This document shows positions 7,871 to 49,259 of a stretch of DNA of 61,334 nt, piece by piece. The DNA lies in assembly GCA_030265395.1 (NCBI GenBank), contig JARFYF010000059.1:17263676-17325009 (forward strand), written 5' to 3'. The position numbers and the translations under genes were made by a program. Numbering within the stretch: position 1 is the first letter of the stretch; every line of letters starts with the position of its first letter. Below the pieces are notes generated by a model. The model was not told the DNA's origin, did no database searches, and saw only the letters and a list, made by a program, of their open reading frames with translations. Source of the DNA: Rhina ancylostomus. Its lineage: Eukaryota.

Positions 7871-9144
7871 CTACTGAGGAGAGTCCACATTGGAAACAAG
7901 TTTTTGTTTTACTGTCACTGGTTTGGTTATTGTAAGTGTCTTGAAGCTTTCTGTTGTGCAATCGTTCGATTCCTCTGAGGCTTGGGCTCCCTCAAAATAC
8001 TTCTGAAATTTGTCAAGATAGGAAGGCCTCTCAGGAAGCAGGTAGTAATGTGTGGAGCTCACCTTCTTCCCATCTTCAATGATAGGTAAAATGCATGGTA
8101 CCCGTGTGGTTGCCCCATCGCTTGCCTGCCGCTGGAGGACTTTGTTGCTGACGTATTTGGGATCAGGTGCAAAGCTTCGTGTTGGGGGCATCACCCCATT
8201 GAGGTAGGNNNNNNNNNNNNNNNNNNNNNNNNNNNNNNNNNNNNNNNNNNNNNNNNNNNNNNNNNNNNNNNNNNNNNNNNNNNNNNNNNNNNNNNNNNNN
8301 NNNNNNNNGTAGGCCGGGAGACTTTTGGGACTTGGGGTGCGTGAATTGCTTCTGGACATAGGTTCTCGTGGAGGAACCTTTGGTGGTCTGTCCTCATCAG
8401 AATGCATGGCTGACATTACCTCTGCAGACCATCTTCGGTAGTCATGTTTCACTGGGCGTGGGGGTATGGGTACTCGAGGGGGAATCTCAGGCTTCACCTC
8501 ATTGGAATTTGGCGATGAGCTTGATAGGCAGCTTGCATTTTTCAACATGGTGGGCTTGTTGTAGGATCCAGCTGGGCCTGAATGTGACCTCCGTAATTTG
8601 CGGTGGGGCCGAGCAGGTTGTTCAGAAACCTCTTTATTTTCCAGTTTACTATCTTTTATAACATGGTAATTCTCTGGCAATCTATTCTGACCAACACCCT
8701 CGGAGTAAGCATAGTTGGTCTGCCCACATCCGCGGAAGCTCCTTCTGCTGGGAGCACCATATCTGAAGCTCAGTGGTCTGTAGTCCTGCAAAAGCAAGTC
8801 AGTTTCAGAACTTGTAATGGACTCGACCTCACTGTCCACATCATCAAAGGGCACATCACCAGAGAAAGGCAGAGGGGGAAGTGGCTTAGAGCTTCGGTCA
8901 CTGGAACATCCAGTATTAATTAGTGCAGTTGCTCCCTTCACTGGTGTTTGAGGTGGTGACAGCACATTGCTGTTCACTGAGAGTTTTTTAAATTGAGACA
9001 ACAGCTGATCCTTCTCCAGCTGTACAAAAGACTCCTCACAGTTTTGCATTTTCAGAGGTGGTGGTCGCAGCTTGTGGAAGGATGATCTGAGGCAGCTTCC
9101 AAAACAGCAGTGTCTATTCAGTCCAAGTGGCTCTGTTTCTTGTC
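7871..9144 (-). CDS. ERRFI1: ERRFI1 large terminal coding exon (proline-rich/SH3-binding region, 14-3-3 site, EGFR-binding/ACK-homology region)
   Basis: Acceptor TTCCTTCCCTCCCTTCAAATAG| at 9145 extends ORF 7871..9049 by 95 nt in frame. Hallmark motifs: [124 protein letters not shown]. Stop TAG at 7873-7871. Interrupted by an artefactual N gap at 8209-8308. Confidence 0.98.
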
Positions 9145-9372
9145 CTATTTGAAGGGAGGGAAGGAATTTTTTTTAAGTGTTATATGCGCATCACAATTTT
9201 CTCCCTCCCCTTCGAAAATCCTGGTGACTTGCTGAGGTCTGTGTTCGAGAGCCACTGGTCATCTCTGTACCTCACTCAAGGTGCCAGAGACCAGCTAAGA
9301 ATTATTGTAATTAAACAAAATTCAAGATAAGGAAAGAGTTTACCAAACTGATACACAAAGGAACAAACCAGA

Positions 9373-11135: not shown

Positions 11136-11257
11136 TTGTCCAAGGTACTTGATTGATTCCAGCAGTTTTTGTTGTTGATGACACAATGAGTGCCATGCAT
11201 GAAGCAGTTACTCAGTGGGCTGCTGATCTCCTGTGCTGCCAGTCCAGCGCTCGACAT
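11136..11257 (-). CDS. ERRFI1: ERRFI1 (MIG6) first coding exon, MSSAGLAAQEISSPLSNCFMHGTHCVINNKNCWNQSSTLD(N)
   Basis: ATG at 11257-11255 in AAGATGT context. The translation resembles the vertebrate ERRFI1 N-terminus (MS.AG.AAQEI..PL...F.H). It is 122 nt and ends in phase 2 at a GTGAGT donor (11135-11130). Too short for the ORF track. Confidence 0.93.
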
Positions 11258-15830: not shown

Positions 15831-17430
15831 CCTTTTATTCTGTCCTAATCTTCAATACCCTTTAGTAATGGTAATCAATTTAAGTACTGCATTACCCCCT
15901 CCCCAAAGTATATAGTTTGTCATTTATTACATTGCTTTATTTTAAAAGAATTCAACTTAAAGAAAAATTCTCAAGATACCATTGGCAAGGTAATTTTAAT
16001 TTGTGTTTTTTGGATTATTATTCCAGAAGGATAGCCACTATACATCCAAAAAGGTTAGTGATGATGTTTGAAACCAGTCTATGTTCCTATATTTCATTAC
16101 TCTCCTACCCCTTACAAGAAATGTTAGACAAAATTGAAAAGAATTGTGATGCTCCACTCACTCCACCAGTTGGACCTCTGCTGATATTTGCCGTTTACAA
16201 TCCCACATGAAAATTATTGACTCATTTGAGATATTGGAGAGAGGAGCATGGGGGCAGTGAGCAACAGGAGGGCTGTATCCAGCAGAGAAACATATGTTTG
16301 TAGGATGGTCAGGCTCTACGCCACTGCCAGAACACATACTGCTCTACCCAAATATTCTCCATCCAGTCAGTACTCGAGCGTTTCCTCAGGGGACCCTGGG
16401 AGGACCATATATGGTTTGTTATCAGTTTTTAAATGTACTTATGCCATGTGCTCAAAACTAATGTATCACGGGATTAGTAAAATTGGTTACCATCTTAAAA
16501 TTGAATGTATTTAGCTATGTTGGAACAGATCCAATAAAAGCACTGCGCAGACGGCTTAGACTATATCGTTTGCCTCCTGTAAACAAACTTCTAAAAAGTG
16601 GGCAGCTGCAAGAAACGGGTAGAGGCGAGTAGGCCGCTTTAAATCGTTATTCATTGGACAGTTTCCAAGCCTGGATACCCCTTCTACTGGAGAGAAAAAC
16701 TGATTTTAAATACCTGTGTATACTCCAGTAGGGAGAATCTAATCATGAATTTCACTAACCTATAATATCTCAAGTCTGCAGCAATCGCTGATAGATTTGA
16801 ACATTCTACCAATTGCTAATTGAAAACAATCGGTAGGGGGACCCGATGTGAGGAGGAAGCACATAGATTTGGTTGGGCAGACCCTGTTAAGTCTGCAGGC
16901 TCCAGGTAACAGGTCGAGTCATTTTACTCACTGTAACTCAGAAACTGATCTTAGATTCAACTCAGATGCAAAGAATGTTAAGGTCGGTAATAGCCGAAGG
17001 AAACAAAATATTCTTATACAAAAAGTCCCGTATTCAATACTAAACCAGGTTTAATAATGCTAATTTTAAAAATTCACTTGCAACATTTTTGCAATAAGTT
17101 TTTCCTTTCGGAAAGAATATTCAAATGGTATAAAGCACTTGCAAGTTCAGGTTATATATTAAACAGATTGGAGTAGCTCTCGGCTAATGATTTATAGGGT
17201 ATTTTGTTCATTTGGCAGCGCAATAAACACGATGTTGTGTCGTGTTTCTTGGAAAATATTGTAGTTATAACAAAGGAATTTGCAGCAAATTGAGTAGAAG
17301 CCGGAGGGGGTTAGTAATAAAAGGATGAGAAAGAATTTTAAAAGGGAATTTATGAGTGAGCTTTTCCGACAAATATATCTGGAGCGAGGGAACTGAGACA
17401 ACAGAGAACAGTGAGTGGCGAGAAACTTAC

Positions 17431-17580
17431 CTACCTCCTGATGGGTTTCATGGGGAAGGAAATCCGGCGTAAATTCTCCAATCGTCCGGCTCACTGCAGC
17501 AGTGAATACATCAACATTTCAGCAGACTGCATTCTATTTCTTCCTCGCTGAGGCTCCTCACTCTAATTAAATGTTTCTCT
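17431..17580 (-). other. ERRFI1: Probable non-coding exon 1 of ERRFI1 (start approximate)
   Basis: Consensus donor AG|GTAAGT at 17430-17425 inside the locally CpG-enriched, repeat-free segment. It lies just downstream of TATA-like and GC-box motifs. Vertebrate ERRFI1 has a non-coding first exon. Confidence 0.6.
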
Positions 17581-17680
17581 GTTGCAATATGCCCCGCAGT
17601 TTGCTTAATAAAGGCGGGCTCTGAATCCTGATGTCATATCAGGACGTCTTCCTCCCGCCCACGGCTTACAGTCAGCACAC
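17581..17680 (-). promoter_or_regulatory. Candidate proximal ERRFI1 promoter
   Basis: Minus-strand TTTATTAA near 17605-17612, GC boxes (GGCGGG ~17612, CCCGCCC ~17654-17660) and a CRE/ATF-like TGATGTCA (~17629). CpG density is visibly raised over ~16540-17880. Confidence 0.55.
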
Positions 17681-18029
17681 TTACTTACCTCTACCTTAAA
17701 GTGGAATTATCTAACAAAAGGCGGAGATAAAAACCTAAAAATTAAATCTGTGACAACTTGTCTTTCAACTTTATTTAATGGTACATCTGAAAAAGTCGCA
17801 GGGAAGAGATGAGTGAAATCAGTTTTGTTTAGAATTTAATTTGGTGGGGCCCACCAATATCCATCAGAACGGCTTAAGCCTTGCAGAAGCCAAATTACAA
17901 AACAAAAACGAGTTTAAACAACATGCCTTAAGTTGCTAGGTATTTTAAATTTTAGAGTGGTACAAGACAGTAACAGTTAGTACATTAAATGTTTTGTCAG
18001 CTGGATACTATTCAGTTAAAAATTTGATT

Positions 18030-22333: not shown

Positions 22334-22723
22334 TTGAAAATAACCACAAACCACTCTTTAATATTGCAGAAGAATGTTTGTGTCCAGATGTATGAATGCA
22401 CAATCTAGCCACAGCTTTGAGTGGCGGGGGCAGAGGGGGATTCACACTTCTCTACAATGTAACAGAGGGATTGATTACCCTTTCCCATCTTCTGGCTGCC
22501 AGAACTTCTATGAACTTTGAAGGGAATTCACAGTTGTTTGGGCTGTGGTAAAAGTATGTTTTATTATGCTTCCAGCTTTTTGATTACACTTTGCAGCTGT
22601 TTTGGATTTTAAAAATATTCAAGTGTACAGAACTGAGACCATTGTACTATGCTCATTTAAAACAGGATCACACACATCTGGGAGAATAGAAAATGTGACT
22701 GAAATCAAACAGTTCTCATGAAA

Positions 22724-22908
22724 GGCAGCCAATGTTTCAGGTCAGGACCTTCTTCAGGACTCCTGAAGAAAGGTCCTGAAGAAGGGTCCTGACCCGAAAG
22801 GTTACTGCCTGCTTTTCTCCACAGATGCTGCCTAGCCTGCTGAGTTCCTCCAGCATCATAGTGTTTTTCATCTAGATTCCAACATCTGCACTCCTTTGTT
22901 TCCCCTGT
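22724..22908. mobile_element. Head-to-head Penelope-like terminal-repeat pair with two near-intact hammerhead cores
   Basis: Minus 22727-22761: AGTC-CTGAAGA-AGGTC-CT-GACCT-GAAA-CA-TT-GGCT. Plus 22773-22807: GTC-CTGAAGA-A-GGGTC-CT-GACCC-GAAA-GG-TT-ACTG, then the family body. Confidence 0.8.
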
Positions 22909-23379
22909 TTTTTTAACAGTCATTAATGGAAAAGCTCCAGGACCCTTTAAGTCAGCGCATGATACNNNNNNNNNNNNNNNNNNNNNNNNNNNNNNNNNNN
23001 NNNNNNNNNNNNNNNNNNNNNNNNNNNNNNNNNNNNNNNNNNNNNNNNNNNNNNNNNNNNNNNNNCTTTATTTCTCTAGTTCTCATGAAATGCAGCAGCA
23101 AAAGGGTTAAGGCCAGACGTGTTGCAGGGGAATTGAGAGCCAAAGACTGAGAAAAACTTTCTCTTTAACATTATTAGTTTACCCCTCAATATAAAGTCAA
23201 CATCTCTGTTGGGAGTATTAGTGACTCCTTTAAAAACAAACCTAACCAAAACAGAACACAACAGCATGTTCTTGCAAAGGGTAAGGTGTGAGGTTGTAGC
23301 TGGGTTTTGCTTGGGGCAGCTCAAAGGCAAGGGAGGGAGTGGACTGGTACAACTGGTTTAGGGAGAGGAAGGACTGATA

Positions 23380-48523: not shown

Positions 48524-48803
48524 GACACAAGAGACAGCAGATGCTGGAATCCGGAGCAACAAATGACCTGCTGGAAGAATTCAGTGGGTTGAGCAGCATC
48601 TGTGGGAGGAAAGAAATTGTCGACATTTTGGGTTGAAAGCCTGCACCAGGTCTGAAGTTGGAGAGGTGAGAAGGCATACTAGCCGTCTCGCCTCTCTACT
48701 TTCAGTCCTGATGCAGTGTTTCAACCCAAAACATTGACAATTTCTTTCCTCCCACAGGTGCTGCTCAACCTACTGAGTTCTTCCCACAGATTGTTTGTTG
48801 CTC
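48524..48803. mobile_element. Fold-back (head-to-head) Penelope-like terminal-repeat element with 11-bp TSD
   Basis: Arms 48553-48675 and 48682-48804 are inverted repeats around loop ATACTA. CCTGTTCTGGA at 48513-48523 and 48804-48814. Confidence 0.85.
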
Positions 48804-49259
48804 CCTGTTCTGGACCTTTTGAGGGAATAATCTGATTAATCCTACCTCTGTATTATGTTTTATTCATTCAAGGAATGTCAGCATTACTGGCAAAACAACT
48901 ATTTATTTTTCATCTGTAATGTCCTTGGTGTTGTTGAACAACATTACACCACTGCAGTCCATGTGGTGAAGTTATACCCATTGTACAATTGGGCAGTAAT
49001 CCTAAAACTGATCACTGGGAAGGACAAATACATACTTCCAGCCCGAAAAACAATAATTCTCCAACATCTCTGCTTCCACTTCAACAGCTTGAATCAGGGT
49101 GTCAAAGCTGCTTTAATCCTGATTTGTAATCTTGCGTACTATGCAGAAATTCATCAACGTTTTGAAGTTCCATATGCAGAAATGTAATCATTTACTTCAT
49201 TAACCCTCTTCATTGAGTGAGCAAGGAACACAATCAATTAAATAGATTTTGCTTTAAGC

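Follow-up and report, generated by a model that had tools for sequence, protein, structure and literature searches.

The window studied here, a stretch of 61,334 nucleotides from Rhina ancylostomus, contains two hammerhead ribozyme cores that lie side by side upstream of the gene ERRFI1. The locus raises the question of what these motifs are, how they came to stand head to head and whether either of them can still cut RNA. An earlier note, made from the sequence of the window alone, had described them as two near-intact minimal hammerheads of Penelope-like retroelements. We found that they are very probably mutated and likely inactive minimal hammerheads in the pLTR of a Penelope-like element, and that the inverted pair came from one old, truncated insertion.

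Sequence and state of the two cores

Both cores (22723-22805) were confirmed letter by letter. On the minus strand, positions 22761-22727 read AGUC, CUGAAGA, AGGUC/cu/GACCU, GAAA, CA, UU and GGCU, and on the plus strand, positions 22776-22799 read CUGAAGA, A, GGGUC/cu/GACCC and GAAA. The cores are divergent, lying on opposite strands and reading away from each other. Positions within the ribozyme follow the common hammerhead numbering. The CUGANGA and GAAA core, with U16.1 and H17, is present in both copies and in the majority sequence of their subfamily. The extra nucleotide before 10.1 and the G10.1-C11.1 pair are also found in the subfamily majority and in the right copy; they are altered in the left copy, where the loss of a G and a C>T change left an A-U pair closing stem II in place of the family's extra A followed by G10.1-C11.1. 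As claimed before, stem III is mutated in both copies, and the ACGU palindrome is lost left and right. In the right copy, C15.2 has changed to G at 22800 and G1.1 is missing. Therefore, its stem I is broken, besides the lost palindrome.

The pair ranked as the best kept among the 12 pLTR fragments in the window, as the earlier note had said. The description "near-intact" fared less well, since a near-functional or special status was not supported: the mutation load of the left copy is average, neither copy keeps core and palindrome together, and the two lie on opposite strands. Compared with the subfamily majority over the 34-nt motif, the left copy had 4 differences and the right copy 2, and the mean over 41 copies was 4.0. 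Two or fewer differences, the class of the right copy, were seen in 12 of the 41. Core and palindrome were both kept in 11 of these 41 copies and in neither copy at this locus.

Scanning the window with a descriptor of the core plus stem II gave two matches, which were the pair itself. On 100 Markov shuffles the same descriptor gave a mean of 0.42 matches and a maximum of 2, and it is by itself weak evidence for hammerheads. An Rfam covariance-model search of the window, the check first proposed, did not recover the motifs: no hammerhead family was among its 7 matches at E<=10. In folding, the isolated motifs did not stand out from shuffles (z 0.0 and -0.65), and an intact copy gave no signal in this comparison either. 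We judged the two motifs to be real because they match a large repeat family, in which the intact 34-nt motif has 483 exact matches genome-wide and none in the reversed control.

As the two cores are on opposite strands, each transcript would hold one sense core, and a dimer in cis is therefore impossible. Either strand was predicted to form a single long hairpin that takes in both cores (z -4.7 and -5.5). Judging from their sequence, both copies are probably dead, because the palindrome is lost in both, a base of stem I is lost in the right one, and the cores lie on opposite strands in a hairpin fold.

The family ribozyme

The subfamily majority was taken from 44 copies chosen on the downstream part only, 41 of which covered the motif. 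It was a complete type-I minimal hammerhead, with a 3-bp stem I, CUGAAGA, an extra A, the G10.1-C11.1 pair, stem II, GAAA, the ACGU palindrome and a GUU triplet. It lies in a pLTR linked to an RT/GIY-YIG gene (see below), and the assignment to the type-I minimal hammerheads of Penelope-like elements thus stands. The palindrome attributed to the family is likewise real, both in the majority of the 41 copies and in the 483 exact genomic copies. For this subfamily, the consensus kept CUGANGA, GAAA, stem I and stem II among copies picked outside the ribozyme, which bears out the consensus predicted by the earlier note. At the palindrome, the C was kept in 24 of 41 copies and the G in 33 of 41, and the remainder was mostly CpG decay. 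A looser pattern with an intact core had 2,261 matches genome-wide and none in the control. If about 3 in 41 copies are exact, the subfamily would have an estimated 7,000 or so ribozyme-bearing copies.

We found changes at 21 of 405 core positions and at 212 of 3078 other non-CpG positions (P = 0.24); at CpG positions there were 148 in 407. The core change rate is not distinct from that of other non-CpG positions. Therefore, there is no sign of selection on the copies, and we infer that those at this locus decayed neutrally.

For the grouping of copies, a core-biased pattern was replaced by an anchor outside the ribozyme, which found 95 copies in a random sample and none in the reversed control. 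There were 239 copies in all, 172 of them in six groups and 67 unclassed. Among the 186 copies with U17, the stem I pair 2.1-1.1 was C-G in 123, U-A in 36, U-G in 12, C-A in 8 and something else in 7, which makes C-G or U-A in 159. This compensatory change probably arose once, in a master lineage, rather than many times. Three of these groups have an altered core in their majority, either C at position 9 or A at position 4, so that the core is not strictly conserved across the family.

The arrangement is of a kind known since 2014 (PMC4209133), where paired motifs on opposite strands were already noted. As described there, the minimal hammerheads (min-HHR) of metazoan Penelope-like pLTRs resemble those here in being type I, with a short stem I, an extra nucleotide before G10.1, a G10.1-C11.1 pair and palindromic positions 15.2-16.2, and also in their place in the pLTR, their dispersed truncated copies and their opposite-strand pairs. 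They differ from the present ones in stem II, which has 4-5 bp here and 7-8 bp in the Schistosoma form, as far as the accessible part of PMC4209133 goes; further differences from that part are the cartilaginous-fish host, the decayed copies at the locus and the sister subfamilies with C at 9 or A at 4. In the open literature, a scope that covers open papers without Repbase, Dfam and supplements, we found no description of this pLTR family or of its variant with C at position 9 (C9).

Linkage to a Penelope-like gene

A query of 191 bases around the pair yielded, at first look, 2,440 genomic candidates. Among the 40 of these that were scored, the dispersed copies had 83-94% identity to the right arm. 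In half of 30 loci examined, the similarity extended upstream into a pyrimidine-rich stretch, and longer copies continued further upstream through the 3′ UTR into an endonuclease and RT frame. Pfam gave RVT_1 in five of six frames (E 2e-6 to 0.035) and GIY-YIG in the sixth (E 0.017), all below the curated cut-offs, and no match in 4 other short frames. A protein search found 44 longer homologues with RT-type domains, the best at 54% to a bamboo-shark (Chiloscyllium) protein. The natural copies have CxxC..H..H around the YIG motif. The CX4CxxC linker between RT and endonuclease is present at L047, L056, L032 and L049 and altered at L036 and L070. In 40 loci around RT matches, where assembly gaps were frequent, we found truncated, frameshifted copies and no full-length gene framed by two direct pLTRs. 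Therefore, the link between pLTR and gene rests on truncated copies.

By these motifs, the element would be an endonuclease-positive Penelope-like element of the Neptune type, an assignment in which Neptune and Nematis are not told apart; the linker and CCHH marks are given for both (PMC8557442). The Neptune-type elements of Craig et al. 2021 (PMC8557442) are alike in the order of RT and C-terminal GIY-YIG with CCHH and in the CX2-5CxxC linker, and also in 5′ truncation, in the inverted 5′-truncated copy and in an optional tail of 30-40 bp. Unlike those elements, as the available text of PMC8557442 presents them, the family here had no intact full-length copy among those examined.

The abundance of the family was measured in 659,448 non-N bases, sampled as eighty 10-kb pieces from set positions on 20 large contigs. 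The sample held 201 pLTR fragments, which made up 2.9% of its bases, with none in the reversed control. If the sample is typical, there would be an estimated 5 x 10^5 or so pLTR fragments genome-wide. Neighbouring pLTR pairs were divergent in 35 cases (one locus counted twice), convergent in 5 and tandem in 8. The 3′ ends fell into two classes about 30 nt apart (69/201 and 81/201), which match the optional tail of PMC8557442 and PMC3846280. In both sources, the inverted 5′-truncated copy, the optional tail and the head-to-head inversion are typical.

Structure and age of the insertion

The insertion occupies 22711-23090. It is bracketed on the plus strand by two exactly matching 13-nt direct repeats (22711-22723 and 23078-23090), likely the target-site duplication of the whole insertion, and each repeat copy touches a pLTR end. 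The two cores form the 5′ ends of two truncated pLTRs. The first element is an inverted short pLTR arm on the minus strand (22723-22761) consisting of the hammerhead only, with the stem I 5′ strand at 22761-22758, CUGAAGA at 22757-22751, GAAA at 22738-22735 and the triplet AUU. The junction between the arms (22762-22772, plus strand) holds a third, partial CUGAAGA at 22763-22769 and is a short duplication of the start of the right arm. The right hammerhead (22773-22805, plus strand) has CUGAAGA at 22776-22782, the extra A, stem II and GAAA at 22796-22799. It is followed on the same strand by the remaining pLTR, including a 3′ tail of about 30 nt (22806-22905), which differs from the subfamily majority at 5 of 94 positions. 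The arms are thus unequal in length (39 vs about 133 nt). Single-copy DNA (22906-23065) then runs into a gap of N (22966-23065), from which the 3′ end of a second pLTR emerges (23066-23077, plus strand), in the same direction as the right arm.

The insertion was found at the same site in two other organisms. In run X3, contigs pass from the left flank into the left arm, and in both X3 and X6 the pLTR end is continuous with the right flank; the flank divergence for X3 was 14 differences in 397. Runs X1 and X2 did not cover the left flank, which speaks neither for nor against the insertion there. The insertion, present at the same site in runs X3 and X6, is therefore older than the divergence from organisms C and D. 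The X3 and X6 contigs have 14-15 further pLTR-end letters before 23066 and extend 2016 and 1966 letters past the pLTR end, with single-copy depth.

The 100-N gap at 22966-23065 corresponds to at least about 2 kb in these relatives, and distances across it are therefore understated. The 13-nt repeat encloses the inverted arm, a pLTR, single-copy DNA (about 2 kb in the relatives) and the end of a second pLTR. On this sequence layout, about 2 kb of DNA was possibly captured between two pLTRs. Such capture is known from the Adineta vaga Penelope (Arkhipova et al. 2013, PMC3846280), which is similar in having one inverted and two direct pLTRs around unrelated DNA and a target-site duplication outside, with head-to-head inversion being usual. 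It differs in that the inner DNA here is mostly in an assembly gap and no donor or empty site was found. According to the accessible part of PMC3846280, DNA capture between pLTRs has so far been shown in rotifers; if confirmed here, it would mean that Penelope-like elements are able to mobilize host sequence in a vertebrate. A genome search for the donor of the stretch that follows the right arm found the self-match only, and a mismatch-rich or unassembled donor would escape this search. A target-site duplication directly after the first pLTR was also considered. It was rejected, as the match there is only 6 nt and is absent in the relatives.

Origin of the inverted arrangement

Among 50 insertions of the family, 14 had flanking direct repeats of 7-13 nt, compared with none among 50 controls. 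We also surveyed the 5′ breakpoints of 30 copies that had been chosen by the intact motif alone (L174-L203). Six were within 0-3 nt of the 5′ edge of the ribozyme, none was at 4-15 nt, and the other 24 were further up or cut by gaps. In the mechanism that we propose, reverse transcription would start at the 3′ end of the pLTR, cDNA synthesis would stop at the 5′ edge of the ribozyme, and a template switch would then produce the inverted arm. The inserted copies would afterwards decay neutrally, and for any transcript through the locus, a single long hairpin and no cutting are predicted.

It may be that the ribozyme fold itself is where the Penelope RT stops and switches template, which would explain both the piled breakpoints and the head-to-head pairs, that the insertion brought some 2 kb of host sequence, enclosed by two pLTRs, to a site upstream of ERRFI1, and that the extra nucleotide of minimal hammerheads lies between G8 and A9, as the hundreds of natural C9 copies with an invariant A after the C may show. 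We put this combined proposal forward as speculation and consider it rather unlikely. Splicing as the source of the breakpoint pile-up was unsupported, the 6 copies being without shared upstream exon-like sequence.

In most subfamily majorities, a pyrimidine tract ending in CAG lies directly at the 5′ strand of stem I (L006:1470-1503). This tract is a possible 3′ splice site, and in the D. virilis Penelope an intron end was mapped at the corresponding place (PMC4209133).

Alternative origins and a possible role for the pair

Could the pair instead belong to a non-LTR retrozyme, a unit spread through circular RNA? Such units derive from pLTRs, have a type I hammerhead and occur in one chondrichthyan (bioRxiv 10.64898/2026.07.22.740005). 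However, they form head-to-tail, tandem arrays, and the pair here is inverted, in a family where tandem neighbours are rare in the sample (8, against 35 divergent). This origin is highly improbable.

A host role would mean that the pair was kept for cutting or shaping RNA made upstream of ERRFI1. The gene was identified by the Mig-6 domain in a minus-strand exon (7871-9172), and its likely first coding exon, as we presume from resemblance, starts near 11257. The only CpG-rich stretch in the window, at 16501-18000, would likely hold the ERRFI1 promoter and a non-coding first exon. The earlier placement of the pair at about 5 kb upstream of ERRFI1 agrees with this inferred promoter but not with the likely start codon, which is about 11.5 kb away. 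Apart from this distance, we found no link of the pair to ERRFI1. That the copies are the best kept in the window, that the right arm ranks with the less diverged copies and that the insertion is common to two other organisms would fit a role near the promoter. The losses in the palindrome of both copies and in stem I of the right one, the ordinary mutation load and a hairpin fold that hides both cores speak against it. Moreover, at about 300 pLTR fragments per Mb, every gene has some nearby, and a comparison of 41 subfamily copies within this genome gave no conservation above neutral decay, as would be expected of a host-domesticated hammerhead. We therefore give a host role hardly any credence.

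Another possibility is that transcription of both strands would let the two copies cut as an intermolecular dimer even now. Minimal hammerheads are reported to cut weakly as dimers (PMC4209133): two motifs in one transcript, or a motif with the element protein, pair through the ACGU palindrome and cut slowly after the NUH triplet (PMC4209133, PMC11167929). In the Anolis element, the ribozyme cuts only with the protein present (PMC11167929), and 1 of 9 Xenopus dimers cut (bioRxiv 10.64898/2026.07.22.740005). At the present locus, CUGANGA, GAAA and stem II are intact in both copies, and a stem III between left and right would keep 3 of 4 pairs. Against this, transcripts of the two strands would pair with each other into a duplex, each alone is predicted to form a hairpin, and the right copy has a broken stem I; in vitro, cutting is poor even for intact minimal hammerheads (PMC4209133; bioRxiv 10.64898/2026.07.22.740005). 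Continued cutting is scarcely credible. Lunse et al. (PMC5785218) are said to have observed dimer cleavage of minimal hammerheads (review PMC6765202). When we folded dimers by minimum energy, stem II swaps and no double hammerhead were obtained, a result that weighs on neither side.

Finally, a MITE or another derivative of a DNA transposon, with terminal inverted repeats that resemble a hammerhead by chance, would fit the short inverted structure, the very high copy number and the lack of a gene at the site, but it can be dismissed almost entirely, as the arms are unequal, most fragments are single, target repeats vary from 7 to 13 nt, subfamilies differ in both bases of a stem I pair, and above all homology continues into the RT/GIY-YIG gene, which largely refutes it.

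The cores are therefore best regarded as parts of a Penelope-like pLTR: they originate from it, lie in an inverted layout and have decayed. The locus as such matters little: it is a decayed pair, and pairs are estimated to number in the tens of thousands. As a modest resource, the family offers at least 2,261 core-intact motifs, spread over several subfamilies.

Amplified core variants

Two core variants have been amplified. C at position 9, with an almost invariant A after it, had 667 otherwise intact matches genome-wide and occurred in 23 of 86 random copies (L205-L234). Either the extra nucleotide lies between G8 and A9, or the elements spread with a weak ribozyme. A instead of U4 was the majority in another subfamily (L110, L114, L116, L130) and occurred in 13 of 86 random copies. 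Both variants bear on whether Penelope transposition needs cleavage; for the Anolis element, cutting was unnecessary for insertion in vitro (PMC11167929).

The C9 subfamily also forms a second, longer inverted pLTR pair in the window (48527-48808). Its arms, at 48703-48808 and 48654-48527, are 84% complementary. Elsewhere, a minus-strand open frame at L076:6880-7500 resembles what we take to be the TIR domain of a Toll-like receptor.
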